59,834 bases of DNA from positions 1-59,834 of the forward strand of contig VGJJ01000002.1 in assembly GCA_016867455.1 (NCBI GenBank). Reading direction: 5' to 3'. The number at the start of each line of letters is the position of its first letter. Position 1 is the stretch's first letter. Origin of the DNA: Candidatus Iainarchaeum sp. (lineage in GTDB: Archaea; Iainarchaeota; Iainarchaeia; Iainarchaeales; VGJJ01). The notes under the pieces were generated by a model. The model did not search any database. It worked only from the letters and a program-made list of their open reading frames with translations, and was not told where the DNA came from. Below are positions 2,223-35,971 of this stretch, in pieces. The position numbers and the translations under genes are program-made.

Positions 2223-2230
2223 GTATTCGT

Positions 2231-2479
2231 ATGTGTCTCGCGATTCCGGGGAAAATTGTTTCCATTGATGGAAAACATGCTATCGTTGATTTTGGAGGCA
2301 TTCGTCGCAAAGCCGATATTTCATTTATTGAAAATCCCGCGGTGGGGGAATACTTACTTGTTCACGTTGGTTTTGGTATCCAAAAAGTAGATGCCGAAGT
2401 TGCGCGTGAAACGTATCGTTTGCTCGCGGAAGTAGAAAAAGAAGAACTGCAGAGGGAACTTTCCAATGACAACCAATGA
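2231..2479 (+). CDS. hypC: hydrogenase assembly chaperone HypC/HupF
   Basis: 82 aa with the N-terminal MCLAIPGKIV signature (essential Cys2). Confidence 0.9.
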   Translation: MCLAIPGKIVSIDGKHAIVDFGGIRRKADISFIENPAVGEYLLVHVGFGIQKVDAEVARETYRLLAEVEKEELQRELSNDNQ

Positions 2480-3485: not shown

Positions 3486-3491
3486 TCATGG

Positions 3492-4535
3492 ATGAATCAA
3501 GAGGATTGTTTTTTGGATAATTGTCCCCCGTTTGAGGATAGGAGTGTGGATCGAATCAAATTGAGCGAAGGGAGTGGCGGACAAGAAATGCACCGGTTAA
3601 TTCATTGGATTCAAAAAATGCTTCCGCCTTCGACTAATTGGAATAATACTCAGGATGATGCGGCTACGATTCCTTTTCCTTCTACTCACAATGAGAGTGA
3701 AAATAATCACCTTGTCTTTACCACCGACTCCTACGTGGTCACACCACTTTTTTTCCCCGGAGGTAATATTGGGACGCTGGCTTTTTGTGGGACCATTAAC
3801 GATTTGGTCGTCATGGGAGCGGAACCCTTAGGGATTTCATTAGGAATGATTCTGGAAGAGGGTCTTCCCCGCACTCATTTGGAAAGTGTTATTCAAACGA
3901 TTGGTGCGCTTTCGCAAAAATACCATGTTCCCATTGTGACCGGCGATACTAAAGTCATGGAACGAAAATCTATCGACAAGATGGTATTGAACACCAGCGG
4001 AGTGGGTCACGCGGCGCGTGTGCTTAACACCCCCCTGCGTGTGGGGGATGATATTATTGTTTCGGGAAGCATTGGTGAGCACGGTGCTGCTCTCTTAGCG
4101 AAGCGTTTTGATATTGATTCCTCCCTCGAAACGGATAGTCAACCGCTTTTGGATGAAATGCGTGCCGTGCGCCAAAACATTAAACAAGCACGCGATATTA
4201 CGCGCGGTGGATTGGTAGGAGTGCTTCATGAATTAGCGCGAAAAAACAATATTGGAATGCAATTGTCTGAGGAACAAATCCCCATTCGTCGAGAAGTTCA
4301 GCATTTGACCGAGTTATTGGGAATCGACCCTCTTTCACTTGCGTGTGAGGGGCGAATGGTTTGTGCATGTTCACCCGATAATACCCCCGCGGTTGTTTCT
4401 GCTCTCAAAAAGTTTAATGATAGTGCAAACGTAATTGGTCGAGTCACTCAAAAAGAAGGATTGTTTCTTCAAACGTCTTTTGGAAACAAGATTATTCCCG
4501 AACCATCCGGTGTACTAACCCCGAGGATTTGCTAA
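3492..4535 (+). CDS. hypE: hydrogenase maturation factor HypE (carbamoyl dehydratase)
   Basis: AIR-synthase-like fold segments and the diagnostic C-terminal PRIC. Confidence 0.9.
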   Translation: MNQEDCFLDNCPPFEDRSVDRIKLSEGSGGQEMHRLIHWIQKMLPPSTNWNNTQDDAATIPFPSTHNESENNHLVFTTDSYVVTPLFFPGGNIGTLAFCGTINDLVVMGAEPLGISLGMILEEGLPRTHLESVIQTIGALSQKYHVPIVTGDTKVMERKSIDKMVLNTSGVGHAARVLNTPLRVGDDIIVSGSIGEHGAALLAKRFDIDSSLETDSQPLLDEMRAVRQNIKQARDITRGGLVGVLHELARKNNIGMQLSEEQIPIRREVQHLTELLGIDPLSLACEGRMVCACSPDNTPAVVSALKKFNDSANVIGRVTQKEGLFLQTSFGNKIIPEPSGVLTPRIC

Positions 4536-6665
4536 CGCGTAAGCTAGTTGACCAAAGGCTAGTCCCCCGTCTCCGCACGGTACTTTTTCATTTACTTCAT
4601 ACTTTTTCGAAACGAGGAAAGAGGTCATTATTTTATTGTAGGCGCAACCACCCCCGAATACGAATGATTTCCCCCCAGTTGTTTGTGCAATTTCATCTAA
4701 ACCAGTAGCAATGTATTGTTGTACGGTCGCGGCTAAGCGTGAACGATTTTTCATTTTGTTTTCAATCAAATACTCAAATAGTGGAGTAGTCAGTAAAACA
4801 TTATTTTCAATAAATGGAGAAAGGTCATACGGTTCACGTGAATGCGCCTCTAACAACATGGCTGGCCTTCCTTCATACGTTCGCTCATCGCAAAATCCAA
4901 GCAAGTAGGATGCAGCATCGAGTATTCTTCCCGTGCTCGTGGTTAGGGGTGCGTTATATTTTTTCTCCCACTGCGTGGAAAGTATTTCCATTTCATTTGG
5001 TTGAAATGATTGGTGCACATGCTTCGCTGCTTCCTCTCTTGATAAAAATTTTCGTAAAATGGAATAGGTCATTTTGGCCGGTTTCATTGCCGCCGAATCT
5101 CCTCCTAATTGCCATTGTTCCTCGAGATGGCCTATGCGCTTGTTCCCGCTAAACACTTCTCCTCCCCATGATTGACCATCTTCTCCATATCCGGTGCCAT
5201 CGCAAACGATAGCTGTGCATTCATCCATGTTTTTTTCTCCCATCACCGCGTAAGCGTGTGCGGAGTGGTGGTATATTTTTTGGTAAGGAACATTCCATTC
5301 ATCAGCGAGTTTTTGTCCAATATGAGAGGATGCAAACGCCGGGTGAGCATCTCCCACCACCATGCTGGGTTGAATATTCATCCATTTCAAATACTTCATA
5401 ATGGTTTCACGATACCGTTGTTGTGCTTCTGCGCGCGAAACATTTCCAAGATAAGGAGACAAAACAGCTTTTCCTTCATGATAAATGGCAAACGTGTTGT
5501 GTAAATCGCCCCCCATCGCGAGAATAGTTTCATTATTTCCTGAAAGTGCAATGGGTTCCGGAACATACCCTCGGCTCCTTCGCAGAAATAGTTTCTTTCC
5601 GCGAATGAGTTTGACCACCGAATCATCAATAGGATTGGCAATCGTGCGAGTATGGTTGAGAATATACTGCGTGCGCTGTTCTTCTATTTTTGTTGTAATG
5701 GGAATGTCCGGCAAATTTGCGGAAGTTAAAACGATGGGCTCCTCTACCCCTTCAGACAGGAGGGCGTGTAACGCAGTGTAGGGGAGCATCACTCCCACAC
5801 TATCTAATTCGGTCACTCCCGGCATTTTTTTTACTAATGGTAAAACAACAATGGGTCTCGCCGGGGACATCAGAATTTTTTTTTCGGTGTCATCCACGCG
5901 GGCAATTTTTTCCACCATGTGGATGTTCCGGCACAGTACCGCATAGGGTTTGTGTTTTCTTCCCGAAATATGGCGCAACTGACGGACACTATTTTCATGC
6001 GCAATACATGCCCAGTGGAATCCCCCCACTCCTTTGATGGAAACCACTTCACCGGTTTTCAAGAGTTGGATCGTTTTCTGGATAGCATCTCTTGCATTTA
6101 CTGAAATTATTTTTCCAGTATCCAGCAATTGCAATTCGGGTCCGCATGCCGGGCAAGCAATTGTTTGTGCATGATAACGCCTCCCCCCTTCGTGAGAGTA
6201 TTCTTCGCTGCACGCGCGGCACATGGTAAACGCATTCATCGTTGTGGTAACGCGGTCATAGGGTGTTTTTTGAGTCATTGAGTAGCGCGGACCGCACCGC
6301 GTACACGTGGTGAAAAAATAGTGGTATCTTCGATTCGTTGGGGTGGAAAGTTCTTCCTCGCATTCGTGGCAGAGAAACAAGTCGGGTGGAATTTCGGAAT
6401 AACCCATTCCATCGCTTTCTCGAATCCTAAAATCGGAATATTTTTCCTTGTTAAACGTCACGTGATAATAGTCTATGCGCATAGGTGAGGGGAGATTGGA
6501 TAATAGTTCAGCTAGTTTTTCCTGGTTATTGACCTCAATTTTTACAAATCCCCCGCAATTTTGCACATACCCTGTTAGGTTGTTTTCCCTACAAATGGTA
6601 GCAATATAGGGCCGGAAGCCCACTCCCTGCACGAGGCCGTATACGCTGAAGCAGTACATGAACAA
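4515..6665 (-). CDS. hypF: carbamoyltransferase HypF
   Basis: N-terminal acylphosphatase motif VYGLVQGVGFRPY, two CxxC...CxxC zinc-finger pairs, then YrdC-like and Kae1-like parts. It ends with TAG and overlaps the convergent hypE by 21 nt. Confidence 0.92.
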   Translation of the reverse strand: MFMYCFSVYGLVQGVGFRPYIATICRENNLTGYVQNCGGFVKIEVNNQEKLAELLSNLPSPMRIDYYHVTFNKEKYSDFRIRESDGMGYSEIPPDLFLCHECEEELSTPTNRRYHYFFTTCTRCGPRYSMTQKTPYDRVTTTMNAFTMCRACSEEYSHEGGRRYHAQTIACPACGPELQLLDTGKIISVNARDAIQKTIQLLKTGEVVSIKGVGGFHWACIAHENSVRQLRHISGRKHKPYAVLCRNIHMVEKIARVDDTEKKILMSPARPIVVLPLVKKMPGVTELDSVGVMLPYTALHALLSEGVEEPIVLTSANLPDIPITTKIEEQRTQYILNHTRTIANPIDDSVVKLIRGKKLFLRRSRGYVPEPIALSGNNETILAMGGDLHNTFAIYHEGKAVLSPYLGNVSRAEAQQRYRETIMKYLKWMNIQPSMVVGDAHPAFASSHIGQKLADEWNVPYQKIYHHSAHAYAVMGEKNMDECTAIVCDGTGYGEDGQSWGGEVFSGNKRIGHLEEQWQLGGDSAAMKPAKMTYSILRKFLSREEAAKHVHQSFQPNEMEILSTQWEKKYNAPLTTSTGRILDAASYLLGFCDERTYEGRPAMLLEAHSREPYDLSPFIENNVLLTTPLFEYLIENKMKNRSRLAATVQQYIATGLDEIAQTTGGKSFVFGGGCAYNKIMTSFLVSKKYEVNEKVPCGDGGLAFGQLAYALANPRG

Positions 6666-6740
6666 TTACTCTTTTTTGCCATATTTATGCCCACTGCGTG
6701 CAACGATAAGACTCTTAAACGCCAAATTCGACTGCAAACC

Positions 6741-7220
6741 ATGACCCACAAGCTCGCATTGGGATGGTTTTCCTTTTCGTGTTGTGAGGATTCCACCATC
6801 GTGTTTACGGAGCTTCTCAACGACCACTTTGACGAATGGTCGAAAGTCATTGATTTTCAATACATTCGCATTCTCAAGAAAAACAACAAAATACACAATT
6901 TGGACGTGGCATTCGTGGAGGGTGCCATTGTTTCGGAACATGATGCGATGAAGCTTAAGGAAATCCGCAAAAACTGCAAAAAGCTCATTGCCATTGGTTC
7001 GTGCGCCATTAATGGGATGCCTTCTGCTCAACGGAATACGTTTGATGATGGAAAGAAGAAGGAAATAGAATTCCTCATTGAAAAATTTCATTTAGCCGAA
7101 AAAGTCCGCACGCCGGGGGATATTGTTAAAGTGGATGATCGCGTGATGGGCTGTCCCATGTCCGAACAAGCATTCTTGGATGTATTGAACAAGACCTTGA
7201 AGGAGTTTAACATCGTATGA
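6741..7220 (+). CDS. [NiFe]-hydrogenase small subunit, truncated (proximal-cluster domain only), group-3b delta-like
   Basis: 159 aa counted from ATG 6741 (the ORF track gives 6687). FSCCEDS, GSCAINGM and GCPMSE supply only 4 Cys. Segments LDVAFVEGAIVSEHDAMKLKEIRKNCKKLIAIGSCA resemble the sulfhydrogenase delta subunit. There is no medial or distal cluster domain. Confidence 0.8.
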   Translation: MTHKLALGWFSFSCCEDSTIVFTELLNDHFDEWSKVIDFQYIRILKKNNKIHNLDVAFVEGAIVSEHDAMKLKEIRKNCKKLIAIGSCAINGMPSAQRNTFDDGKKKEIEFLIEKFHLAEKVRTPGDIVKVDDRVMGCPMSEQAFLDVLNKTLKEFNIV

Positions 7221-8494
7221 AGGACGTGGACATCTCCATTCAGAATATTACTAAAATTGAGGGTCATGCGAGTTTAGACATTCAGGTGCGCGACAATAAG
7301 GTGAAGCATGTTCAACTCATGTTCACGGAGAATAAGCGTTTTTTCACGCAGGCGATTCGAGGACGCAGTATAGATGTTTTGTCGCAATCCGTGGCGCGCA
7401 TTTGTGGAACATGCTCCATTGCTCACACCATGTGCTGCATTGAGGGAATTGAGAAGGCACTCAACATTATTCCCAGTGAGCAGACGCAGGTCCTCAAACA
7501 ACTCACCATGGATGGACTCATGATTAGAGACCACGCGTTGCATATCTATCTTTTTTCCTTGCCTGACGTGTTTAGCGTGGATAGTGTGTTGGATTTTACT
7601 CCTGAGCACACGCACTTTTTGCATGATTCGTTTGACATTAAGCGCGCGGGAAACAAGTTGAGCACCATCGTCGCCGGACGTGCGGTGCATGCTCCTTTTC
7701 CCGGCGTGGGAGGATATGCTCAAGTTCCCAAAAAGGATGATTTGAAAGCCATTATTCCGGATTTGAAGCTAGCCCGAGAGAAACTCGTGGGTGTATTGGA
7801 TGAATACTATAATTGTCCCGTGGATTATACTCGCTCCACGGATTTTGTCGCATTAGTAGGAGACAAGTTTGATTTTTTGGAAGGAGATATTGTTTCTTCC
7901 GACGGGGACGTGGTGAAAGAAAAAGATTATTTTTCGCACTTGGAAAAAAACGTTGTTCCATATTCTCAAGCCGTGGGATACAAATTTGAAGGAGACACCT
8001 ACATGGTGGGTGCCCTCGCGCGCATTAATTTGAACAAGAAGGGCTTGCATAAGGATACGAAGAGGGATGCTAAGAAGTATTTGCGCGTTTTTCCTTCCAA
8101 AAATATTTTTCACAATAATTTGGCTCAAGGCATTGAAATCATGCACTGCATTGATCATGCGCTCGAAACCATTGAGTCATTTGATTTCAAACCCGAACCC
8201 AAGCAAACGTTTGAGAAGAAAGCATGTGAGGGCGTGGGTGTTATTGAGGCGCCGCGCGGAACATTGTATTATCACATTGACATGGACTCAAATGGAATGG
8301 TGAAAGAGGGAAATATTATTGTTCCGACTCAACAAAATCAAATCAACATGGAGCAGGATATCGCCGTATTAGTGGAGCGTTTGCTCAAAACGCATTCGAA
8401 AGAACAAATAAAGTATGAGATTGAAAAACTGGTTCGCGCCTATGACCCGTGTATTAGTTGTGCGACTCATTTTTTAGAAGTGAATTGGACATAG
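7217..8494 (+). CDS. [NiFe]-hydrogenase large subunit, group-3b alpha-like
   Basis: N-terminal RICGTCSIAH (RxCGxCxxxH) and C-terminal DPCISCATH, followed by a 7-aa tail FLEVNWT. 4-nt overlap with the small-subunit gene. Stop codon is TAG. Confidence 0.9.
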   Translation: MKDVDISIQNITKIEGHASLDIQVRDNKVKHVQLMFTENKRFFTQAIRGRSIDVLSQSVARICGTCSIAHTMCCIEGIEKALNIIPSEQTQVLKQLTMDGLMIRDHALHIYLFSLPDVFSVDSVLDFTPEHTHFLHDSFDIKRAGNKLSTIVAGRAVHAPFPGVGGYAQVPKKDDLKAIIPDLKLAREKLVGVLDEYYNCPVDYTRSTDFVALVGDKFDFLEGDIVSSDGDVVKEKDYFSHLEKNVVPYSQAVGYKFEGDTYMVGALARINLNKKGLHKDTKRDAKKYLRVFPSKNIFHNNLAQGIEIMHCIDHALETIESFDFKPEPKQTFEKKACEGVGVIEAPRGTLYYHIDMDSNGMVKEGNIIVPTQQNQINMEQDIAVLVERLLKTHSKEQIKYEIEKLVRAYDPCISCATHFLEVNWT

Positions 8495-8861
8495 TTTGTT
8501 TCAATTCGTGGAAGATTTCTTCTTTTTTTCTTTCATCATGCGCGGGGGGAATTCCAAAAATAGTGACTCGTTTCAATTTACCCATTTTTTGCATTAATTT
8601 GAGCGTCATTCCCAAATCAAAATCGTGCAACGAATAGGAGGGGGAGGATTTGATCGCGTTCACATCCGTCCACACCATTACGCGAGGGATGTTGATGATT
8701 GTGTCAATGATGATGAGGTGTTCTTCCTCCGGAAAGTTTTCCGTGGGATCAATCTCCACAAAATGCAATGAGGGAAATGCTTCGCATAAACGAGGCAGTA
8801 ATTGGATGGGTAACGCGTCCACTTCTTCGAGGGGGTTTCCTAATACGTAGAGTCGCACCAT
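8454..8861 (-). CDS. hydrogenase maturation endopeptidase (HycI/HoxW/FrhD family)
   Basis: Start moved to ATG 8861 (MVRLYVLGNPLEEVDALPIQ...). Segments HLIIIDTI and SLHDFDL are typical of the family. Its 3' end overlaps the convergent large-subunit gene by 41 nt. Confidence 0.8.
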   Translation of the reverse strand: MVRLYVLGNPLEEVDALPIQLLPRLCEAFPSLHFVEIDPTENFPEEEHLIIIDTIINIPRVMVWTDVNAIKSSPSYSLHDFDLGMTLKLMQKMGKLKRVTIFGIPPAHDERKKEEIFHELKQTMSNSLLKNESHN

Positions 8862-23492: not shown

Positions 23493-23906
23493 TTACTTGC
23501 TGAAAATTTTTCCCAAACTATCAAGTATTTTGTTGGCAATGTCGCTAATCAATAGTCCGGGGTTTTTTTCTTTGACTTTCCATACAAAATTTTCCGTATC
23601 CTTGTATGATTTTGCTTTTCCGGGAACCAAGTGCTCATTTATTTTTTCAGCCGCTGCTTTTCCTACTGAATCATAGAATTTAGCAGGATATTTTCCCGTT
23701 AGTTTTTCGATTTCACTCATTTCTCCCGTGTACACGGCCTTTGCTTTCGTGTACGTGGAATGAATTCCCCGTCGCGTGGATCGTGCGGCGAAGGCGAATG
23801 AGTAGATCAATAGTGTCAATGCCGCGAGGATGACCCAGAATACTTGCTTCGTGTTGAATAGAATCACGACCACGATGAGTAAAATCAGGAGAGTGGAGGC
23901 TTTCAT
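23493..23906 (-). CDS. small membrane protein with 2 TM and a Lys-rich soluble domain (unknown)
   Basis: 137 aa. Adjacent to the upstream ORF with no gap. Confidence 0.65.
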   Translation of the reverse strand: MKASTLLILLIVVVILFNTKQVFWVILAALTLLIYSFAFAARSTRRGIHSTYTKAKAVYTGEMSEIEKLTGKYPAKFYDSVGKAAAEKINEHLVPGKAKSYKDTENFVWKVKEKNPGLLISDIANKILDSLGKIFSK

Positions 23907-24260
23907 TTAGTATCCTCCCATTCCACCCATTCCGCCCATTCCTCCGCCGCCTCCGCCTCCTAATCCTTGGAGTGCGGCCATCATTTCGGGGCTCATTCCT
24001 TCGGGTTGTTCTTCCGATGGTTTGACTCCCACGAAGTAGGCTAAGACAACGAGTCCTATCGCGATGTAGAGCATTTCTCCTTGCAAGTCGCTTCCCAGCA
24101 TGACGAATATGACGCCGGTGACAAGGGTGAGTAATATTCCTGAGAGGGAGCGCAGACTAATGAGTAGGAAAATGAGGATGGCGAGCGCGGCCCAGAGTAT
24201 TTGGTATTGTACCGCGAATGCGAGCAGGAATATTGCCACTAAATAGGTGAACGTGTCCAT
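23907..24260 (-). CDS. small polytopic membrane protein with a C-terminal Gly/Met repeat tail
   Basis: 117 aa with 3-4 TM segments. Ends LGGGGGGGMGGMGGMGGY. Confidence 0.65.
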   Translation of the reverse strand: MDTFTYLVAIFLLAFAVQYQILWAALAILIFLLISLRSLSGILLTLVTGVIFVMLGSDLQGEMLYIAIGLVVLAYFVGVKPSEEQPEGMSPEMMAALQGLGGGGGGGMGGMGGMGGY

Positions 24261-24283
24261 GTTTTTTTCGCCCCGTTTTCGTG

Positions 24284-24529
24284 TTACTTGTCAAATGCTC
24301 CTATTTTTGCAAAGATGTCTTTTCCAAATGTGGCGAATGCCCATAATGCAACGAGCAGCCAAACCAAATCGGGGAATTGGTAAAAAGTCAGAAACATGAT
24401 GATGATAGCCGTTACCAGTGCGAGCTTTGCGCTTCCCACATTTCCTTTGGCCCAATTGTATATCCAGATGAAGATGAAGATGGATATGGCTAAGTGAATG
24501 CTATCTCCCAGCGCGTCATAGATGATCAT
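24284..24529 (-). CDS. small membrane protein (3 TM, unknown)
   Basis: 81-aa hydrophobic ORF on the same strand, downstream of purF. Confidence 0.6.
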   Translation of the reverse strand: MIIYDALGDSIHLAISIFIFIWIYNWAKGNVGSAKLALVTAIIIMFLTFYQFPDLVWLLVALWAFATFGKDIFAKIGAFDK

Positions 24530-26273: not shown

Positions 26274-26281
26274 TTTAAAAG
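26274..26281 (+). promoter_or_regulatory. TATA-like box TTTAAAAG for the giant gene
   Basis: It ends 22 nt before ATG 26303, with no SD in between, which fits a leaderless mRNA. Confidence 0.45.
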
Positions 26282-26302
26282 CCCTGATTGAGTATCCAGA
26301 CC

Positions 26303-29300
26303 ATGCGCTCCTTCACGCACAGTACTCCTTTGATGGGTGTCCTCCTCACGGGGCTTTTGTTCGTAGCAATGGCATATTCAGGGGTTGCTCAAGAAGTGGT
26401 TGAGACCGCTGCCGAAGTGGCGGATGCTATTTCATCAAGCGATATTGTGGTTGATTCGGTCTCTCCTGATTTTTCAGTGATTGCACCATTTGATGGGGAT
26501 GTTGTTTCGAATTCGCTGATGGTGATGATTCTTCCTGCATCACCGGATGCGATTACGCAGGCATACACCACCCTAACGTTTCGGGACCCGATTGATGGCA
26601 GTGATAAAAAATATCGGAATGATTTATCATCGGCTGATAATTGGACAACCGCATTTGATTCTACTCTCATCCCCAATGGAAAGGCACGCATTGCGATGCA
26701 CCTTTGTATTAATGTCGTGTGTGCGGACAAAGAAGTTGATGTGAGTATTGACAATACGCCCGCACCTGCATCATCAAACACGAATGAAGCGAATGCCGAT
26801 ATTTATTTTCCGGAAGTGAATGAGAAAGATCCTCTCTCCTCCGAGACGAATGATCCTGTTCCGGTTGAACCATCCGATACTGGCACCTCGACTTCCATTG
26901 ATCCTGCGCCTGTTGAACCGGTTCCTATTCCATTGGTTATTTTTACTCCTTCGAATGTTGCGGGGGCGTTTCTCATTTTTGATTCGAAGGGAGAATTGTC
27001 TGCCCGCACGTCGGGTGATTCGGTGGAGTTGCCCGTGGGAGAATATTCGGGTGAATTTGAATTTTTTAATCGATTAATCTCCAACATTAGTATTGGTTCA
27101 TTTTCTCTTGCTGAAAACGCGGTTGGAATTTCTTTTTTTGATGATGCGGTGACGCAGCGTTTTTCGATTGGGGGCAAATCATTCCAGCCGGTGGCGAGCA
27201 CGGGCATATCATTCGGCGTCAAGCATGATGGAGCGAGCATTGCGTGGGGAAACACTCCTGAGTCGCTGGACCTTATTTGGTGTACGAATTGGAATCGAAA
27301 CGCTTCCACATGTGATGATGGAGAAATCATCTCCAAGATTTCTGACAGTAAAGAAGTGATTATCAAAGATCGCGAGGCCGTTTTTGTTGTAGCCAAACCG
27401 CTGGGTGACACGAATCCGGGGGCGGGCGAGCTTCGATTGGTTGTTCCTTCCAACATTGGTGGTTTTTTTTCATGGACGGATGAAGTTGGAAATATTTTCT
27501 CCTCGCGCGGAGAGGCCGTCGAGTTGCCGCAAGCATCGTATGATGTGAACATGGAATTGTCTTCCTCGGCTATTTCGCAACTATTTTTCGATAACATGGT
27601 GCTTGATCACAATGGGACAATGGTGCAGGTTATTCCCATTCTCACTTCCGCGAGGGGAGTGCACATTACGACAGTGAATATTGATTATCCTTTTGAAAAT
27701 GGTTTTTTTACATTGGATCCGGATTTTAATGCGAGTAATATCCAGAAGTGTTCGTCGTGGGATCCGGTTGTTCAGATTTGTTCGGGTGAATGGAGTAATA
27801 CTGATTTTTCACTCGCGCGTGGTCTTACTGCTTACCAGTTTTTTCCGCGGAGTGATTCCGCAGAACCTTCTCCTCCGGATGTGTCAAACATTCCTCTCTC
27901 GGAGCGGCAGCAGCTCAAGAATTTGATTGAGCAGCTCAAAAAATTATTCAAGAATAGGCAATACTATATTTCAGATTTGGATCATTCCTCGTCGCCGGTT
28001 CTTTCGTCGTTGTTTAAGAAAATGGAGCTCTCCCTCGAATGCGGTGTTCCGGCAAAACCAACAATCTCGGATGCGGACCGAGTTCCGGAAGATAGCAACG
28101 CGGCAGCGGATGTGATCGTTCCATCACTTGAGGCATCGGTGGATGAATCGCCTTTCGCCACCAACGCAGTGGAATCCCCCGCGATTCTCGTGCAAGAGAC
28201 GAATGAAAACGCTTCTCCCGTTCAAGTGGATTTGCTCCCGGGAGAAAATCCATTAGAGAGTGCGTGGGAGGATGTTTTTCCAGAGAAGTTTAATGGCAAG
28301 CAAGAAGAAGGAATTCTCTCCTGCGACGGTGTCACATTGTTGAATGAGTTTAGGGATGTCTTAGATAGTGTGGATGATGAAAACACCACTTACTTGGGAG
28401 ATCTGGGCCCCTACACGAAGCAGACGCTCACGCTTTCTAATTTGAATTCGGTTCCCGTGACGCGCATGGTGAATGTTCGTTTCATTCTTCCTAATCCAAA
28501 GCTTGCTACTGAAAATAGGACCATGGAGCCTTTTTCGTTGTACCAGTTGATTAAGACGGAAGAGGTTGAGCTCGTTAAAGATGTGAACGTGGACGCGAAT
28601 ACCATGGTCACTGAAAAAGTGGTTCAAAATCATGAAGTGGAATTCATTGACTCGCAGGAGGAAGTGGATGGTTCGTATGATTGGGAGGATTATTGGCACG
28701 CGGGAGTATATCCGATTGGTCTCGTTCACCGTGCGAATAATCGAATGGTGTTGGACACACTCTTGACGATTTCGCTACTCCCGAATGAGACTAAAATTAT
28801 TGATCCTATTTTTGAGTTGGCTGAAACCCCTGCGTTTACGGCGGCGTGGGATGGCAACAGCAAATTTGATTTCATTGGTGGCGCGAGTGATATTAATGGA
28901 GTACTAATCCTCGACTTAGACAATAATGGCGTTCCTAATGACATGATTATCACGGCTCCCTTTGCGGACACGAATGGTAAGTTTGACAATGGTGTTGTTT
29001 ACGTGATTAAGGATTTCAATAGACAGACTGATATTAAGGGCTTGGGTAATCCGGATAATTTTTCTATTGCATTTGCCGCGCCATTCACGGCAGACATGTT
29101 GGGAAGAGGATACTTAGCGGCTATTCCGGGTTCAATCGGCGTTCAAGTGTACAACACGGATGGTAATGCGTATGCGAATGATTTGATTATTACGGCCACA
29201 CGCTCGGACGCGAATAACGCCGGAAAAACAGATGCGGGTGCGGTGTATTTGATTAAGGATGTTGATCGCAAAACGGGTTTTAGGAGTTTGTTGGATACAA

Positions 29301-32300
29301 CCAGTTTTGATGCCATGTGGACGGGTTCCAGCGCCTCCGACTCTATTGGTGGAACCAATGGTGGTAATGGAATCATTGTGGCTAATTTAGATGGAAATTC
29401 ATCCGCGAATGATTTGATTATTTCTGCCTATAACGCGCTTTCGGGTAAAGCAGGGAATGGTTCGGTGTACATGATTCTGGATATTAATCGTAAAGTAGGA
29501 AGATATGATTTGAATCACACGCAAAGCTTTAATGCGCGGTGGGATGGTAACGCGTTTGTCGCCACGGAAAACTTGGGAAGCACCAACAATAGTGGACAGG
29601 GCGTTCAAATAGTCAATATTGACAAGAATACGATTGCGAATGATTTGATGATTGTTTCGTATTTAGCGGATTATAATGGTAAAGCAGATTCGGGAAATAT
29701 TTACATTATTAAAGATATTAATCGCCGGTCCGGAATTCTTCCATTTTCGAGCACGGCTAATTTTGATGTCATGGTCACGGGCGGAGGATTAGCGGCGGGA
29801 ACGGGTGCCCAATTAGGGAGCACGAATGGTTGGGGTAATGCTGCGCGATTCTATGATATGAATGGTGATGGTTTCGTGAATGATTTGTTGTTGACGAATT
29901 ATCAGGCTGATTTTAACGGAAAGACTAACAATGGTGCAATCTGGTTGATTAGTGATATTAATTCCAAGTCCGGCGTGATTGATTTGAACACCACGAGGGG
30001 GGGACTGTATAATGCACTGTACTATGGCGGAGCCCTCAACGACCAAATTGGCGCATACAATACCGCGTATACGCTTCCAGGAAATCCGGGCGAAACCGTT
30101 TTAGTGGTTAATTTGGATGGAAATGCCACGGCAAATGATTTGATTATCATCGGCGATGCGGTTGATTCGAATGGACTTGCCAACGCGGGGGCGGTGTACT
30201 TAATCAGGGATATCAACGCCAAACCGGGAACATTTGATTTGAATAATGGAAACGTGTTTAATGCTCGTTGGTTGGGTGCCGTCGCACAGGATTTTTTGGG
30301 GTATAATGATTCCATCAACACGGGCGTTCAAGTCGTGAATATTGACAACAATTTGTACGCCAATGACTTGTTGATTGGTTCTACTTTCACGGATATTAAT
30401 GGTAAAACGAGCTCGGGCGGAGTGTATTTGATTCGTGACATTAATGCATTAAATCCCGGGCTGTACGGTAATCGCCGCTACCTTGGAAATTTGGATCATT
30501 TTAATGCTCGCTGGAATGGCGGCGCGGGTGATTTGCTTTCAGACAATAACTTGAGTGGTCCTTCAATTATGGTCATTAATGCCGATGGTAACGCGTACGC
30601 GAATGACTTGTTGATTTCCGCGAGTTCGGCGGATGTGAATGGTTGGACGGACAATGGTGCCGTGTATTTAGTGTTGGACGTGGATCGAAATGGTTTAACG
30701 GGCGTTTTGTATGATTTCAATTCCATTGCCCGCGGAACGTACAAAACTCGTTTTAGTGGGAGAAATAATTTTGACCAGTTAGGGGATACGAATCGCGGCG
30801 GTCCGGCAATGATCGTGGCGAATATCAATAACACGGCTTCCGCGAATGATTTGATTTTGGTTAGTCCAAAGGTTGACACGCATAAACGCGATGCTGGAGC
30901 AGTAACGTTGTTTATGGATATTAATTCGTTGGACTTGAATGTGGGTATTGATAACAACCTCATGCTCTATCACCAGTGGAGGGGCGATTTGAATTCGGAT
31001 GCGGTGGGTGATGGTAACGTTCAGAACACGAGTGTATATTTGGTCAACACTGATTTGAATACGCGTGCAAATGATTTGATTATTTTATCCGCCAATAAGG
31101 ATGCGAATGGGTTGATTAACAATGGAGCGGTATTCTTTATCAAAGACATTTCGACCGCGCGAGAGGGCCGGGGTTCGTTGACGTTTGTGTTAAACCAACC
31201 AGGTTTTGATGGTAATTCGGTTCGCGTGGGGGGCGATATTAATGTTTCGGCTCGCGCCACGTGTATTCTTGCTAACTGCGGAATTGTATCCAGCTCCGTT
31301 CAATACTGTAAGAACGACCTCAACACGATTACGTGTGCAAGTTTTATTGACATGAATAATGATAGTGCGAGTCCGCTGTATGTTACTCAAGGCAGTGTTA
31401 CCGTCATGAGCGGACCGATTACAATAGATCAAGCATTTGATGTTAATTGGACGATTCGCGGAAGTGATGTGAATAGTTATATGATTCGCGTCATTTCTCG
31501 CGGTGCCAATGTTACAAACGCCACTTCTACTGAAAGACGATTAGTTGTCGAGCCTGTAAATTCATCTGATTTGCAATTGAATTACACATTTTCGGCAAGG
31601 CTTTACGGTTTGGTTAATGATACGATTGGTTACACTAATTTCAGCCGCGACGGGGTGAACATAGTTAATGTGGATAACGGTTCGTATGCCAATGATTTGA
31701 TTATTACGGCTCCCTTCGCGGATGTAAATGGTAAGGCGGACAGTGGGGCTATTTATTTGCTCAAGAATATTGACCAAAACACAGGATTAATCGACTTGAA
31801 TCATTTTACGCAGAGTTTTAGTGCCCGTTGGAATGGGGGCGCAGCCAATGATCGTATTGGAGACATGAATGGTTCCGGCCAAGGATATCGTTTGGCCGAC
31901 ATGGATGGAAACGGTTACACGAATGATTTGTTGATTGGTGCACCGTTTGCGGATGCGAATCAGAAAACCAATAATGGGGCGCTTTATTTGATTAAAGATA
32001 TTGACAAAAAGGGCGGTGCGTTTGATTTGAATATTCCCACGAATTCTTCGCTTCGTTACACGGGAAATATTACGGGTGACGCCCTTGGTTTTGTGATGGG
32101 TGGCGGAAGCGGAATGAGTTTGTCCAACATTGATGGGAATGGGGTGTTGAATGATGTATTAGTTGGTGCGACGTATGCGGATGCTAATGGTAAAGTGGAC
32201 ACGGGACGTATTTTCTTGCTGCGTGACATTAATCGTTTTGATGGATTGCGGGATTTGAATAACACTACTTTCTTCAGCGCCGCATGGAATGGAGGAGTGG

Positions 32301-34354
32301 TGCGTGAAATACTCCCTCATAATTCGCGTGGTTTGCCATCATTTTCGGATGCGATGCAATTGGTAAACGTCGACCAAAATGCGTCGGCAAATGATTTGCT
32401 CATTACGGTTTCGCAGGCGGACATGAATGCTAAATCCCGCGTGGGAAAAATTTATTTGATAAAAGACATCAACGCGAAAGCGGGATCATTTGATTTGAAT
32501 AATACTAATTTTTTCAATTATGCGTGGAATGGTCCGATGGCCGGTGATGAAATTGGTTTCACCTCATTAAATGGTCAAGGGGTTCAATTGTTTGACTTGG
32601 ATGGGAATGGGTACGCGAATGATTTGTTGATTACGGCATCATTTTCTGATTTGCGAAAAAGTAATGGGGGTGCCGTGTATATGATACTCGATATTGATCG
32701 GAACACGGGTGGTATTCGTGATCTCAATCAACCGTCATTCTTTAATGCGGCGTGGTCAGCGGTGAACGCGTCCGACCTGATTGGTGACACGAGCGGGAGC
32801 GGCAATGCGGTTCAAATTGGAAACCTGGATGGCAATGCGAACGCGAATGATTTGGTGTTGAACGTGCCGCTGGAAGACTATAATAGTGGAACCAACAACG
32901 GCGCCGTGTACGTGATTCTGGACATCAACAAGAAAGTGGGTCAGCAGGATTTGAATATTCGTACGAATTGGAATGCTAAATTTTATGGGTTGACTGGAAA
33001 TTTGCTCGGGGACACGGAAAACGTTACATACACGTTCTCGGATGCTAATGCGAAAGGTGTTCTCATTACGAACGTGGACGGGAATACTTTTTCCAATGAC
33101 TTGTTGATTGGCAGCGCGCTGCATGATTTCAATAATAAAACGAATGTGGGTGGAGTCATTTTGATTCGCGACGCGAATAGTGTGGCAGAGCAGCGTCTCA
33201 TTTTGAATGATTTGAATTATTCCGCGGGTTGGAGCGGCGGGGTGGCGTCGGATTATTTGGGGGACACGAATCGTTCAGGCCCTGGTTTCCAAGTTGGCAA
33301 TTTTGACGGGGGATCATACGCCAATGATTTGGTTATTTCGGCACCGAGTGCGGATGTGAATAACAAGAATGATAATGGTGCCGTTTACGTGATTAAAAAT
33401 ATTGATACGTTCCGCGGGCAACGAGACTTGATTGCTCCTGTAAAATATGATGCCCGCTACGTTGGACAGGGTTCCCTTGATTATTTAGGTGAAACGGTTT
33501 TCGGCGGCTTTGGTGTTCAGATTGTTAACGTAGATGGCAACGCGTACAGTAATGATCTTATCATTACTGGCGCACGTGCGGATGCGGGTTTTATTAGAGA
33601 TTCGGGCGCCACTTATTTAGTGAATGAAATTCAGAATGATGTGAATGATAATGATTTTGCCAATAATAATAATTATACGTGGAGATGGCGCGCATCCTCT
33701 ACCAATGCGTATTTAGGCCAGACGTTCAGCAATGCCCGCGGTGTTCAAGTCACTAATATTGATAATGGTTCCACGACCAATGATTTGATTGTCATTGCCG
33801 CGTATGATGATGTGAATGGCCGCACCAACTCGGGAGCGGTTACCCTCATTGAGAATATTTCATCGGCATCCACGCTGGATTACACGTTTGCCGTGCTTCT
33901 TCCTTCGTCTGGTTGCACGAATGGAAAGGGAAATATTACTGGGGGAACCACGTGCCAGCGGGCGTGGATTGAACCGTTGGTTGATTTGAATGGCACTACC
34001 ACTGAGACAGGATTAGTCCCGGAAGGACAGTCAACAATAGATGCTACGTCTCCCTTCTTTCGGATTGATAATCAGTCCACGAGTTCGACGAGTTTCACTA
34101 TTTTGTTGGATTTGAATCAAGCATATCCTGCAGAATACACCCTAAAAGCAAGTCAATTATTTTCGGGTTGGGAATCCACCTGTTCTGGGACCCCGTCAAC
34201 CGGTTGTATTACCTTAACCACCACTCCCACGAGTGTGGGCACCGCCACGTATTCGGCGGGAACCAATGATTTGAGCATCTTTTTCTTCGGTGATTTCAGC
34301 AGTGCGAACGCTGGACGAGTTGATCGTAATGTGGATACGAATTATACTCCGTGA
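26303..34354 (+). CDS. giant secreted repeat protein (FG-GAP / integrin-alpha-like Ca-binding beta-propeller blades)
   Basis: Uninterrupted frame of ~2,683 aa from ATG 26303 (the ORF track gives TTG 26288). Signal-peptide-like MRSFTHSTPLMGVLLTGLLFVAMAYSGVAQE. There are 20 repeats of consensus N.DGN..ANDL[IL]I.A..AD.NGK...GAVYLI.DI. No C-terminal TM. Confidence 0.9.
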   Translation: MRSFTHSTPLMGVLLTGLLFVAMAYSGVAQEVVETAAEVADAISSSDIVVDSVSPDFSVIAPFDGDVVSNSLMVMILPASPDAITQAYTTLTFRDPIDGSDKKYRNDLSSADNWTTAFDSTLIPNGKARIAMHLCINVVCADKEVDVSIDNTPAPASSNTNEANADIYFPEVNEKDPLSSETNDPVPVEPSDTGTSTSIDPAPVEPVPIPLVIFTPSNVAGAFLIFDSKGELSARTSGDSVELPVGEYSGEFEFFNRLISNISIGSFSLAENAVGISFFDDAVTQRFSIGGKSFQPVASTGISFGVKHDGASIAWGNTPESLDLIWCTNWNRNASTCDDGEIISKISDSKEVIIKDREAVFVVAKPLGDTNPGAGELRLVVPSNIGGFFSWTDEVGNIFSSRGEAVELPQASYDVNMELSSSAISQLFFDNMVLDHNGTMVQVIPILTSARGVHITTVNIDYPFENGFFTLDPDFNASNIQKCSSWDPVVQICSGEWSNTDFSLARGLTAYQFFPRSDSAEPSPPDVSNIPLSERQQLKNLIEQLKKLFKNRQYYISDLDHSSSPVLSSLFKKMELSLECGVPAKPTISDADRVPEDSNAAADVIVPSLEASVDESPFATNAVESPAILVQETNENASPVQVDLLPGENPLESAWEDVFPEKFNGKQEEGILSCDGVTLLNEFRDVLDSVDDENTTYLGDLGPYTKQTLTLSNLNSVPVTRMVNVRFILPNPKLATENRTMEPFSLYQLIKTEEVELVKDVNVDANTMVTEKVVQNHEVEFIDSQEEVDGSYDWEDYWHAGVYPIGLVHRANNRMVLDTLLTISLLPNETKIIDPIFELAETPAFTAAWDGNSKFDFIGGASDINGVLILDLDNNGVPNDMIITAPFADTNGKFDNGVVYVIKDFNRQTDIKGLGNPDNFSIAFAAPFTADMLGRGYLAAIPGSIGVQVYNTDGNAYANDLIITATRSDANNAGKTDAGAVYLIKDVDRKTGFRSLLDTTSFDAMWTGSSASDSIGGTNGGNGIIVANLDGNSSANDLIISAYNALSGKAGNGSVYMILDINRKVGRYDLNHTQSFNARWDGNAFVATENLGSTNNSGQGVQIVNIDKNTIANDLMIVSYLADYNGKADSGNIYIIKDINRRSGILPFSSTANFDVMVTGGGLAAGTGAQLGSTNGWGNAARFYDMNGDGFVNDLLLTNYQADFNGKTNNGAIWLISDINSKSGVIDLNTTRGGLYNALYYGGALNDQIGAYNTAYTLPGNPGETVLVVNLDGNATANDLIIIGDAVDSNGLANAGAVYLIRDINAKPGTFDLNNGNVFNARWLGAVAQDFLGYNDSINTGVQVVNIDNNLYANDLLIGSTFTDINGKTSSGGVYLIRDINALNPGLYGNRRYLGNLDHFNARWNGGAGDLLSDNNLSGPSIMVINADGNAYANDLLISASSADVNGWTDNGAVYLVLDVDRNGLTGVLYDFNSIARGTYKTRFSGRNNFDQLGDTNRGGPAMIVANINNTASANDLILVSPKVDTHKRDAGAVTLFMDINSLDLNVGIDNNLMLYHQWRGDLNSDAVGDGNVQNTSVYLVNTDLNTRANDLIILSANKDANGLINNGAVFFIKDISTAREGRGSLTFVLNQPGFDGNSVRVGGDINVSARATCILANCGIVSSSVQYCKNDLNTITCASFIDMNNDSASPLYVTQGSVTVMSGPITIDQAFDVNWTIRGSDVNSYMIRVISRGANVTNATSTERRLVVEPVNSSDLQLNYTFSARLYGLVNDTIGYTNFSRDGVNIVNVDNGSYANDLIITAPFADVNGKADSGAIYLLKNIDQNTGLIDLNHFTQSFSARWNGGAANDRIGDMNGSGQGYRLADMDGNGYTNDLLIGAPFADANQKTNNGALYLIKDIDKKGGAFDLNIPTNSSLRYTGNITGDALGFVMGGGSGMSLSNIDGNGVLNDVLVGATYADANGKVDTGRIFLLRDINRFDGLRDLNNTTFFSAAWNGGVVREILPHNSRGLPSFSDAMQLVNVDQNASANDLLITVSQADMNAKSRVGKIYLIKDINAKAGSFDLNNTNFFNYAWNGPMAGDEIGFTSLNGQGVQLFDLDGNGYANDLLITASFSDLRKSNGGAVYMILDIDRNTGGIRDLNQPSFFNAAWSAVNASDLIGDTSGSGNAVQIGNLDGNANANDLVLNVPLEDYNSGTNNGAVYVILDINKKVGQQDLNIRTNWNAKFYGLTGNLLGDTENVTYTFSDANAKGVLITNVDGNTFSNDLLIGSALHDFNNKTNVGGVILIRDANSVAEQRLILNDLNYSAGWSGGVASDYLGDTNRSGPGFQVGNFDGGSYANDLVISAPSADVNNKNDNGAVYVIKNIDTFRGQRDLIAPVKYDARYVGQGSLDYLGETVFGGFGVQIVNVDGNAYSNDLIITGARADAGFIRDSGATYLVNEIQNDVNDNDFANNNNYTWRWRASSTNAYLGQTFSNARGVQVTNIDNGSTTNDLIVIAAYDDVNGRTNSGAVTLIENISSASTLDYTFAVLLPSSGCTNGKGNITGGTTCQRAWIEPLVDLNGTTTETGLVPEGQSTIDATSPFFRIDNQSTSSTSFTILLDLNQAYPAEYTLKASQLFSGWESTCSGTPSTGCITLTTTPTSVGTATYSAGTNDLSIFFFGDFSSANAGRVDRNVDTNYTP
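28840..33865 (+). repeat. in-frame coding repeat lattice: 10 + 10 units of ~77 aa (~230 nt)
   Basis: Run 1 spans ~28840-31150 and run 2 ~31570-33865. They are separated by a Cys-containing, non-repeat insert of ~140 aa. Confidence 0.85.
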
Positions 34355-34369
34355 TGGATGGGATCATGA

Positions 34370-35194
34370 ATGAAAAAAATGAATAATTGGCGGATGGATT
34401 CGGCAAAAAATTCGGCGTGGCCGCGCATGGCAATAATGGTTATTGGAATAATAGCATTAGTCATTGTTTCGTGGTTGGGTTGGAATTATTTTTCCTCTTC
34501 TCAAAATCAATCATTGCTTGTTCAAAATTGTTCATCCATTAATCGCGAATCCTATGGGGTGAATCCGGTTATTTTTGAAGAACTTCCTTCCCCGCCGGCG
34601 TGTTTTTACACGGTGGTAGATGCGTTTCGCAGTGGTGATTTTTTGAATCCATTCTTTTTTGATAAAACGTATTATTTGCAGCCGGAATTTTTTCCATTAT
34701 TTGAGAGAGAGGGTCTTGCAGCGTGGAAATATCCTTCAGCGGGAGTGTGGGGAGCCGTAGGGTATGGCGCACACCCCTCGAGTTTATCCTTTTCTCTCCT
34801 TCCGGGGCAGCGTATTCGTACTCGTTTGTTTATTTTTTCGAGCATGGGTATTCGTACGTATCAGGGAATGAGAATAGCTCCCTTTTTTCCAAACCCTGTG
34901 GATGAGGCGCATGTTACTATTTCTATTCTCGGGAAAGCGGGCAATGGTTTTATTGTGGGGCCCAATTTTCCTAAATTTAGTAGCATGTGGGTGCAGCCGG
35001 TAGATATTGAAATCAGGGCTGCTGAAAATATTCCTCCTGAAACCTTGCGCGCGCGGCTCGTGGTTAAATCACCTGAATCGGCTACAGACGAGCAGGGAAT
35101 AGAGAAGTATGGTAGTAATTATTTTCCTGCCACTGCGTATGTGGGAGAGCGGTCTCCGGCGGAGATTACTATTACTATTCTTCCAGAGAAATAG
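34370..35194 (+). CDS. single-pass membrane protein co-oriented with the giant gene (unknown)
   Basis: 274 aa with an N-terminal TM (MAIMVIGIIALVIVSWLGW). Starts 15 nt after the giant gene stop. Confidence 0.7.
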   Translation: MKKMNNWRMDSAKNSAWPRMAIMVIGIIALVIVSWLGWNYFSSSQNQSLLVQNCSSINRESYGVNPVIFEELPSPPACFYTVVDAFRSGDFLNPFFFDKTYYLQPEFFPLFEREGLAAWKYPSAGVWGAVGYGAHPSSLSFSLLPGQRIRTRLFIFSSMGIRTYQGMRIAPFFPNPVDEAHVTISILGKAGNGFIVGPNFPKFSSMWVQPVDIEIRAAENIPPETLRARLVVKSPESATDEQGIEKYGSNYFPATAYVGERSPAEITITILPEK

Positions 35195-35236
35195 GTTGAT
35201 GATTAAAAAAAATGAATGATGGGGCGAGAATAATGG

Positions 35237-35971
35237 TTATTCTCGTCCGCCGACTAATCCTGCGGCTTCTTCTAATCGATTTCGTCGTCCGCGGAATTCT
35301 CTGCGTTTGCGTTTTTGTCCTTGGTCCTCGGATTCTCCGTCTTTCAAGGGGTATTCGAATTCTTCGATTGTTTTGGGAAACGCTTCATCATTGGGAATGT
35401 TTCCGCTGGCTTTCAAGTATTCTTTTGCCAAGAGCCAATATACTAATGCTAGTGACTTGCGTCCCTTGTTGTTGATGGGGATGGCAATGTCGATGTTGGC
35501 GAGCGAGTTGTTTGTGGAGGCGAGTGCCACGACCACGGCTTTGGCTCGTGCGGCTTCGGCGATGGCTTGTGCATCGGACTCGGGTTCGGTGATGATAACC
35601 ACTTGCGGTTGGATGAATTCTTTTCCTTGTGGATTAGTGAATGTTCCCGGCACAAACCTTCCAGTGAGTGCTTTTGCTCCAATAGCGTTGGCGAATTCTT
35701 CGGCGGGTGTTTTTCCATATACTTTTCGTGAGACCACGATTATTTTTTTGGGAGAGTATTTGGACAAAAACAATCCTACTTGTTTTACTCTCTCGTCAAT
35801 GACTTGTACGTCCAACACTTTCAATCCGTCTTTTCGCTGCTTGTAGATGTATCGGGACATGTCTCCTGACTTGAATCGGGTGCCAATGTGTGCTCCCGTT
35901 GTGAGATATTTTTCGATTACCGGATTGGTGGCAACCACTTGTTGCGTGTTTTCGTCCATTTTTTCAGTCAT
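35237..35971 (-). CDS. rps2: 30S ribosomal protein uS2
   Basis: LTTGAHIGTRFKSGDMSRYIYKQRKDGLKVLDV; acidic/basic C-terminal tail. Confidence 0.93.
   Translation of the reverse strand: MTEKMDENTQQVVATNPVIEKYLTTGAHIGTRFKSGDMSRYIYKQRKDGLKVLDVQVIDERVKQVGLFLSKYSPKKIIVVSRKVYGKTPAEEFANAIGAKALTGRFVPGTFTNPQGKEFIQPQVVIITEPESDAQAIAEAARAKAVVVALASTNNSLANIDIAIPINNKGRKSLALVYWLLAKEYLKASGNIPNDEAFPKTIEEFEYPLKDGESEDQGQKRKRREFRGRRNRLEEAAGLVGGRE

Follow-up and report, generated by a model that had tools for sequence, protein, structure and literature searches.

How might a very large secreted protein without a membrane anchor of its own be held at the surface of an archaeal cell? The question is raised by two adjacent genes of Candidatus Iainarchaeum sp. 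in a 59,834-nucleotide (nt) stretch of contig VGJJ01000002.1 (GenBank assembly GCA_016867455.1); this whole stretch, numbered along its forward strand, is referred to as the window. The first gene encodes a secreted giant of 2,683 amino acids (aa) that carries two runs of FG-GAP repeats and ends in a C-terminal domain (CTD); the second encodes a small protein with a single transmembrane helix, which we call the partner. A first-pass annotation, made from the sequence alone, had proposed the two as a candidate cell–cell attachment system. The analyses below tie the partner to the CTD rather than to the FG-GAP repeats, and lead us, with moderate confidence, to the view that the locus is a leaderless two-gene operon that displays a CTD-bearing cargo on its cognate, membrane-tethered partner.

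A giant secreted protein and its C-terminal domain

The gene of the giant occupies positions 26303–34354 of the forward strand, in a frame that is open without a break from 26288 to 34354. Orthologs share the N-terminal MRSFT that begins at the ATG at 26303, and the resulting product of 2,683 aa agrees with the single uninterrupted frame of ~2,683 codons described at first pass. Residues 1–29 (26303–26389) constitute a Sec-type signal peptide, MRSFTHSTPLMGVLLTGLLFVAMAYSGVA followed by QE. Cleavage is predicted between VA and QE, and the sequence [AG]-Q-E after the hydrophobic core is kept in orthologs, in line with the earlier description of a signal-peptide-like N-terminus.

Behind the signal peptide lies an N-terminal region (aa 30–835; 26390–28807, forward strand) that comprises a domain with Cys135 and Cys140, a Pro/Thr-rich linker, two Cys-paired modules, a helical segment and a further domain. 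It is collinear with L003 and L008 at 24–30% identity, and with L004 and L006 over the first ~450–500 aa (L and P numbers denote loci and proteins of our collection); neither the region nor its modules gave a Pfam, NCBIfam or PDB sequence match. The two modules had been described as duplicates of ~170 aa, each with a Cys pair. The Cys pairs are present, one at the end of each module (327/337 in the module at aa ~205–345, 483/493 in that at aa ~372–505), but the duplication is faint: BLASTP of the region against itself returned no match, and a Smith–Waterman alignment of aa 210–272 with aa 376–437 scored 72 (z = 7.3), a value reached by 0 of 500 shuffles.

Two runs of ten FG-GAP repeats follow on the same strand, with a period of ~77 aa, both delimited by Pfam and by a repeat hidden Markov model (HMM): run 1 spans aa 836–1625 (28808–31177) and run 2 aa 1776–2522 (31628–33868). 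Between them sits an insert domain of ~150 aa (aa 1626–1775; 31178–31627) with four Cys (1654, 1659, 1669 and 1678), which is akin to the domain preceding the CTD in L004 and L006 and is also found in the ortholog P0154. In all the giant has 16 Cys, in 7 local clusters. No catalytic domain was detected across its 2,683 aa in Pfam and NCBIfam scans. N-x-S/T sequons occur at 18.3 per 1,000 aa, compared with 5.6 in the other open reading frames (ORFs) of the window. Both the Cys clusters and the sequon density are in keeping with an extracellular protein, and the giant is probably N-glycosylated.

Twenty repeats on a metagenome-type contig invite the suspicion that the long frame is an artefact of repeat assembly, or else that the adjacency of the two genes is functionally meaningless. 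We find this hardly credible. No tandem array was called in the giant ORF, and its DNA repeats, over 20–95 nt, are only 60–80% identical, which makes repeat collapse or a chimeric assembly unlikely. P0154, an independent ortholog from a third lineage with 44% identity, is collinear with window aa 1011–2680 through run 1, insert, run 2 and CTD, so that the doubled architecture is inherited and not a chimera. The first-pass annotation had allowed for a frame broken in the underlying data; on both lines of evidence the frame holds. The linkage described below, moreover, recurs in dozens of loci, whichever of the two genes comes first.

The last domain of the giant, the CTD (aa 2523–2683, ~160 aa; 33869–34351, forward strand), had been taken for a unique one. 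This proved wrong: it is the most conserved and family-defining module, and it co-occurs with the partner. Run 2 and the CTD, aligned and used together as query, retrieved 33 proteins related to the giant. Across relatives the CTD retains 46–56% identity to the window copy, against ~24–43% for the remainder of the giant in relatives outside the window's own subclade. Four of its Cys are invariant, and the motifs DYxF-x3-LPSSGCTxGKG, PEGQ, DNQS, LDLN, LKxS, WGDF and D-x-NVDS are conserved. It forms the extreme C-terminus in 11 relatives and also terminates proteins without FG-GAP repeats, such as the 1,525-aa protein of L006, which has MG2/immunoglobulin (Ig)-like matches. No relative of the CTD was found in Pfam, NCBIfam or the PDB.

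There is no hydrophobic stretch at the C-terminus; the giant ends ...RVDRNVDTNYTP. The earlier statement that the C-terminus holds neither a transmembrane segment nor a recognisable sorting signal therefore stands in its first half; as to the second, the CTD is in practice a recognisable C-terminal signal. Two familiar signals were considered for it and rejected: a sortase or archaeosortase signal (PGF-CTERM, PEF-CTERM or LPXTG), there being no C-terminal helix and no NCBIfam match, and a tail of the type IX secretion system (T9SS), there being no match and no outer membrane.

The partner is tied to the C-terminal domain

The partner gene (34370–35194, forward strand) shares the frame of the giant and begins 15 nt after its stop codon. 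Its product, of 274 aa, has a single transmembrane helix near the N-terminus, as had been noted at first pass; the helix spans aa 20–41 (34427–34492) and is preceded by a basic N-terminus. The ectodomain is, by family alignment, conserved from aa ~49 onward (34514–35191). The surroundings of partner genes were compared in 64 loci, gathered through exact look-ups, a genome scan, a metagenome scan with an 18-sequence partner alignment, and look-ups of giant homologs. Every ORF in the 64 loci was searched with HMMs of four kinds: partner, CTD, repeat and S405, the last being a second secreted family to which we return below.

The comparison covers 84 partner genes in 58 loci. Directly upstream of 39 of them, on the same strand, lies a CTD- or S405-type gene, with gaps of −42 to +290 nt, most of them below 70 nt. 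A cargo-type gene (CTD, S405 or repeat run) stands directly downstream of 10 of the 84, and for eight the upstream side is off the contig; the remaining partner genes are mostly second members of tandem partner pairs, or come from distant clades. In the window pair the CTD HMM matches at 8e-78 and the partner HMM at 4e-82, across the gap of 15 nt. A C-terminal CTD with an adjacent partner on the same strand is found also in L003, L009, L012, L014, L015, L017, L018, L020, L022, L024–L026, L028, L029 and L031. Altogether the CTD adjoins a partner gene in ~20 distinct loci, and when three giants were looked up, each by its sequence, every one had the partner adjacent. Co-conservation of the downstream gene, on which the first proposal had depended, is thus borne out. 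In the closest relative, L001 (55% identity), the partner precedes the giant, whereas in the window it follows; adjacency is kept in both gene orders, and the linkage therefore survives rearrangement.

To which part of the giant does the partner belong? CTD cargos with other passengers keep their partners, as in L006 (MG2/Ig-like) and L049 (DUF2341), and no partner was found within 5 kb of P0168 and P0171, which are ten-repeat FG-GAP proteins without a CTD. Present with the CTD on different passengers and absent near CTD-less FG-GAP proteins, the partner is tied to the CTD-type domain and not to FG-GAP. A neighbour-joining tree of 70 partner ectodomains shows clades split by cargo type, and genomes with two cargo types have one partner in each clade (L014, L024, L026 and L028). 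The tie between partner and CTD-type domain is cognate and one-to-one.

The two genes also appear to be expressed together. As first noted, a TATA-like box, TTTAAAA, lies at 26274–26280, 22 nt before the ATG of the giant; an A/T-rich box 20–30 nt upstream of the pair's first gene is present in most of 11 loci examined, and the window copy would serve as the promoter. A box at 22 nt from the ATG implies a leaderless or near-leaderless transcript. The 15-nt spacer between the genes (34355–34369, forward strand; TGGATGGGATCATGA) holds a purine-rich Shine–Dalgarno-like element and is too short to leave room for a separate partner promoter. Spacers with GGAG, GGTG or GTGA, 1–51 nt long (most under 30 nt), occur in nine loci with the order cargo then partner. 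From these signals a single transcript is predicted, with a leaderless first cistron and a Shine–Dalgarno-led second cistron.

A conserved unit of ten FG-GAP repeats

The count of 20 repeats of ~77 aa, arranged as ten and ten, was right from the start, and ten turns out to be the conserved unit across the family. The repeat HMM finds exactly ten repeats in 16 relatives. Most ten-repeat relatives are ~1,650–1,760 aa long and consist of a single run followed by the CTD; two (P0172 and P0173) are a signal peptide and ten repeats only. That the repeats are FG-GAP repeats is confirmed by a Pfam scan, in which the giant scores 73.1 bits for PF01839 (cut-off 22.1; E = 1.5e-20) over 5 stretches; the family is also precomputed for the relatives P0154, P0158, P0159 and P0173. 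A PDB sequence search with run 2 gave no match. Compared repeat by repeat, run 1 and run 2 show only a weak diagonal (permutation p = 0.04); it is run 2, taken with the CTD, that most resembles the one run found in relatives of ~1,700 aa, with 42% identity to L003 over aa 1784–2680.

The loops of the repeats follow the consensus N/D-x-D-G-N-x-x-x-N-D-L, with Asp at position 3 in 18 of the 20 repeats and the N-D pair in all 20; binding of a metal (Ca2+) by these loops is plausible. Integrin-type FG-GAP propellers described so far, bacterial ones included, have seven blades (PMC3192720). The giant departs from this number, having ten repeats per unit twice over in the window, and each ten-repeat unit might close as a 10-bladed ring. 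We found no paper linking ten blades with FG-GAP, or FG-GAP with DPANN archaea.

Organism labels among the source names of the 33 relatives are all archaeal ('Candidatus Diapherotrites archaeon', 'archaeon' and one 'Candidatus Micrarchaeota'). A scan of a genome collection found the partner in six archaeal metagenome-assembled genomes (MAGs), one of them Candidatus Iainarchaeum, and one MAG with a relative is labelled Thaumarchaeota. Among the metagenomic relatives, several derive from groundwater of Hainich (0.1-µm filtrates). Judged by the labels of these relatives, the organism is most likely a DPANN archaeon close to Iainarchaeota.

Variants of the locus were also seen. In L015, L016 and L027 (contigs of 831–844 kb) a ~175-aa insertion splits the CTD of a 1,943-aa giant (HMM positions 5–126 and 125–167), and the partner is followed by P0172, an 828-aa protein of ten FG-GAP repeats alone, without a CTD. 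Two genes downstream of the pair in L012 and L013 are a DsbA-like thioredoxin (PF13462/PF01323) and a glutaredoxin, which may have a bearing on the numerous Cys pairs of disulfide type in the cargo; this arrangement is not kept in the window.

Proposed display by a membrane-tethered partner

How, then, might the pair work? The first gene would be transcribed from the TATA box, probably as a leaderless mRNA. The giant would be exported via Sec and stabilised by local disulfides, and would present N-terminal beta-rich modules, two ten-repeat FG-GAP units (blades of the integrin-alpha propeller type) and the CTD. The partner, anchored on the outer face of the membrane by its N-terminal helix, would recognise the CTD of its own cargo through its ectodomain and so keep the cargo at the cell surface; with the cargo held through its CTD, the propellers would project outward as the ligand-binding part. 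More widely, the pair would be one form of an archaeal cassette in which a secreted CTD- or S405-type protein with an exchangeable passenger is matched to a cognate partner. We infer that CTD and partner bind physically, and that the partner anchors its cargo rather than assembling or processing it.

The family of the partner is large. In an exhaustive HMMER search its alignment returned 331 cluster representatives at E ≤ 0.001 and 208 at E ≤ 1e-10; among the matches listed nearly all are ~200–370 aa long. None of 100 family members matched Pfam, the partner has no NCBIfam match, and the family profile found nothing in the PDB. Across members the ectodomain is tethered in three ways: by an N-terminal transmembrane helix, by a lipobox Cys, or by a signal peptide together with a C-terminal transmembrane helix. 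Near-invariant positions are R59, F69, L72, P73, P76, Q104, P105, E106, F107, G131, G133, P136, Q165, G166, P198, P201, W207, P235 and Y251. An AlphaFold model from 3 sequences (predicted local distance difference test, pLDDT, 60) resolves the transmembrane helix and a beta-sandwich at aa 131–270. Foldseek matches to it are generic sandwiches of Ig, PapD and major-sperm-protein (MSP) type with template-modelling scores (TM-scores) of ~0.3, and were not used for assignment.

Several observations weigh against display as we picture it. Only ~13 residues separate the transmembrane helix from the conserved partner domain, so that a cargo would sit under any S-layer and very near the membrane. Residues 46–130 of the partner, its most conserved half, are not resolved in the AlphaFold model, which leaves room for an enzymatic or chaperone role, and Q104, E106 and Q165 could be catalytic. 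The CTD was modelled at a pLDDT of 50 (12 sequences), with no Foldseek match below E = 6. Several distant partner clades had no cargo detected alongside, in a scan whose cargo HMMs, derived from close sequences, may have been too narrow for such clades. The repeat loops, which the first-pass annotation had equated with the Ca-binding loop of FG-GAP blades, are related to it but are not an exact match: set against the integrin pattern Dx[DN]xDGxxD they have one residue more, and Asn predominates at positions 1 and 5. Finally, adhesion as the role of the passenger, including adhesion to a host cell, is suggested only by analogy with integrins, and FG-GAP propellers also occur in enzymes.

The first of these alternatives to consider is that the partner processes the CTD enzymatically, by cleavage or covalent attachment, in the manner of sortase or PorU. 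The CTD would suit such an enzyme as a conserved C-terminal recognition module, the pairing is cognate, and the near-invariant R59, Q104, E106 and Q165 (with the QPEF motif) also speak for it, in a protein whose most conserved half is the one missing from the model. The family alignment, however, contains no family-wide conserved Cys, His or Ser that could act as nucleophile; no peptidase or transpeptidase match was obtained in Pfam, NCBIfam or the PDB; and known sorting enzymes serve many cargos per gene, not one per cargo. We therefore rate processing as very improbable.

The S405 family and the possibility of assembly

S405, the second secreted family, exists in two forms, one of ~405 aa (L002, L003, L004, L006 and L007) and a minimal one of 170–250 aa (L010, L011, L014, L024, L026, L028, L030 and L032); the longer form is the minimal domain plus an insertion of ~210 aa. 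In nearly all loci S405 has a partner paralog of its own, which follows on the same strand, and the S405/partner unit is often divergent from or adjacent to the giant/partner pair. No S405 gene is present in the 60-kb window, and S405 has no Pfam, NCBIfam or PDB sequence match. By eye, CTD and S405 present their motifs in one and the same order: at the N-terminus a strand that ends in Pro, next a pair of Cys and a strand rich in D/N, then LKA and, close to the end, [WF]-x-x-D-F. An hhalign comparison matches the C-terminal halves of the two in this register, though weakly (probability 14%, E = 0.002), and a 232-aa ORF in L059 matches the HMMs of both. A common origin of CTD and S405 is possible on these resemblances.

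Such an origin would fit a different account of the cassette, the main rival to ours, in which CTD and S405 are the polymerising domains of a fibre, pilus or lattice, the S405 proteins its bulk subunits, the giant a terminal adhesin with a FimH-type layout, and the partner an assembly factor (chaperone or base) acting, for example, by strand complementation. Secreted proteins of 170–250 aa that consist of S405 only, each with its own partner paralog, speak for this account, and in several genomes two pairs stand side by side in the order giant, partner, small protein, partner (L014, L024). The small S405 proteins begin, after the signal peptide, with the alternating strand TTFTFNVP, the equivalent of which in the giant (DYSFVLxLP) is internal; PapD-like chaperone and MSP folds, too, are among the fold matches of the partner. 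Against this, the hhalign match that aligns the two domains is weak, the partner folds are generic Ig-like sandwiches at the low TM-scores given above, no sequence match to TasA, AbpA, thread, cannula or pilin families was found in Pfam or the PDB, the neighbourhood holds no conserved usher-like or ATPase gene, and the window lacks S405. We consider assembly rather unlikely. More doubtful still is its boldest form, in which CTD/S405 and partner together make an undescribed archaeal surface-assembly machine for a cell-contact organelle, with S405 proteins polymerising or docking, giants as terminal adhesins and partners as chaperones or bases; such a machine would be a DPANN analogue of the chaperone–usher or WxL systems.

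Distant homologs of the partner form tandem pairs, in which a long member (337–379 aa) precedes a short one (271–317 aa), in L036, L041, L042, L048–L053, L055, L057, L058, L061 and L062. The short member, inspected in L036, L048 and L049, has a signal peptide and a C-terminal transmembrane helix. In L036 and L049 the tandem partners are preceded by a small S405-like gene and by a secreted protein of ~1,000–1,200 aa that ends in W-x-W-x-D-F, the L049 protein carrying DUF2341; the cargo C-terminus of L048 is of the same type, truncated by the contig end.

The role of the passenger and the genomic setting

A cargo displayed on its partner, as we favour, need not be an adhesin. The passenger might instead bind or process polymers or ions, as in glycan capture, an enzyme scaffold or an envelope function. 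FG-GAP propellers are found in non-adhesive enzymes such as rhamnogalacturonan lyases, the family of the giant includes proteins that are a signal peptide and ten repeats only (P0172 and P0173), and the cassette accepts unrelated passengers. The window, in addition, holds apparent genes for hydrogenase maturation, and genes for purine synthesis, so that an obligate episymbiotic lifestyle is not implied. The failure to detect a catalytic domain anywhere in the giant counts against this alternative, as does the fact that giant surface repeat proteins are most often adhesins; we think it unlikely, yet a real possibility.

The window is a piece of archaeal chromosome, with a ribosomal-protein gene cluster in archaeal order, a family-B DNA polymerase (PolB), purF, apparent hyp genes and six tRNAs. 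Origin of the gene pair from a phage or plasmid was considered and rejected, since the pair is flanked by purF, PolB and the ribosomal protein operon. Nothing in the content of the window bears on an episymbiotic lifestyle. ORFs at 244–8861 resemble hydrogenase maturation (hyp) genes and [NiFe]-hydrogenase subunits, judged from their N-terminal sequences only; if real, they suggest a metabolic capacity beyond that of typical obligate DPANN symbionts.

The partner gene is convergent with that of ribosomal protein S2 (35237–35971, reverse strand). A run of nine A on the forward strand (T9 on the reverse) at 35203–35211, just 3′ of the S2 gene, is probably the terminator of S2; on the forward strand the partner gene has no clear T-run behind it. 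Three small polytopic membrane ORFs (137, 117 and 81 aa; 23493–24529, reverse strand) lie between a 188-aa ORF and purF, one of them with a weak Peptidase_M50B-like match. Farther away, at 55698–57710 on the reverse strand, is the gene of an acidic secreted protein of 670 aa with a signal peptide, 5–6 Cys-containing modules of ~100 aa and a C-terminal transmembrane helix followed by a basic tail. Its modules have motifs of the type T-N-x-S-S-x-x-F and a weak DUF1573 match, and it is a candidate envelope or S-layer protein with, unlike the giant, an anchor of its own. A Pro/Ala-rich ORF of 675 aa without Pfam or NCBIfam match lies beside it (57784–59811, reverse strand).

Significance and comparison with known systems

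Little is known of how ultra-small DPANN archaea build their surfaces and attach to other cells, and hardly any of them has been cultivated. The present locus defines a CTD that marks secreted proteins with very different passengers, and a partner drawn from at least 331 sequence clusters that is nameless in databases. If the pairing is a device for anchoring or assembly, the CTD predicts the surface proteome of these lineages, and the locus is a handle on host-contact proteins; CTD and partner, moreover, are two small domains fit for binding and structural studies. The repeats, for their part, extend FG-GAP/integrin-type repeats to archaea as a strictly conserved unit of ten.

With the propellers of integrin alpha and of bacteria the giant shares Pfam FG-GAP and tandem units in which a hydrophobic strand, an Asp/Asn-rich loop and a further strand follow one another (PMC3192720). 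Those propellers have seven repeats of ~60 aa, whereas the archaeal giant has ten per unit, conserved as such, of ~77 aa. It also lacks the thigh and calf domains, the transmembrane segment and the beta-subunit that go with integrin alpha.

The two-gene logic is that of SlaA and SlaB in the Sulfolobales, where a large secreted protein without an anchor is held by a small membrane-anchored protein encoded by a neighbouring gene. No sign of homology was seen: PDB sequence searches with the giant's repeat run 2, the CTD and the partner gave no match, and the fold matches of the partner are generic sandwiches. SlaB has a C-terminal transmembrane segment and a coiled-coil stalk; the partner, in contrast, has an N-terminal helix and almost no stalk, and occurs in several cargo-specific copies per genome.

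The WxL loci of Firmicutes encode small and large WxL-domain proteins, which bind peptidoglycan through WxL, along with the membrane protein WxLIP. The resemblance is one of organisation only: small and large cargos, membrane-tethered beta-sandwich partners and a variable passenger. That small and large cargos share one C-terminal domain here is hinted at by the hhalign register and the L059 ORF, and a W-x-[WL]-type aromatic motif near the cargo C-terminus (WGDF, WLWADF) is reminiscent of WxL. A WxLIP entry, 9i1y, is among the fold matches of the partner at a generic TM-score of 0.29. CTD, S405 and partner gave no Pfam match to WxL or WxLIP (DUF916/DUF3324) at E ≤ 0.1–1, apart from a noise-level match of WxLIP_PGBD to one small cargo (E = 0.13), and the peptidoglycan target is lacking in these archaea.

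In type IX secretion of Bacteroidota a conserved C-terminal domain likewise marks diverse passengers for surface attachment. Here there is no outer membrane and no Por_Secre_tail match, and the partner is encoded one per cargo and adjacent to it. Giant surface proteins of DPANN and Candidate Phyla Radiation (CPR) symbionts are exemplified by the SPEARE proteins of Nanohaloarchaeota. These resemble our giant in being very large and secreted, in belonging to an archaeal lineage of small genomes and in their proposed contact role, and are unrelated to it in domain content; to our knowledge, a conserved C-terminal module with a cognate partner has not been described for giants of the SPEARE type.

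The layout of a passenger followed by a C-terminal subunit-like domain is shared with FimH and PapG, the two-domain tip adhesins of chaperone–usher pili, and with archaeal filaments of the TasA superfamily (PMC12518558). The likeness extends to the stand-alone S405 proteins, with their free N-terminal strand, and to the dedicated partner, with its Ig-like sandwich. It does not extend to sequence: searches of Pfam and PDB sequences yielded nothing that matches TasA, camelysin, AbpA, thread or cannula proteins. There is no usher gene either, and the low pLDDT of the CTD model limits the comparison of folds.

Taken together, these comparisons place the two parts of the giant differently. Its FG-GAP part is of a known fold family, and is new in having ten repeats rather than seven; the CTD–partner cassette has analogues in organisation only. 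The giant and its partner thus point to an undescribed archaeal way of mounting large proteins on the cell surface.

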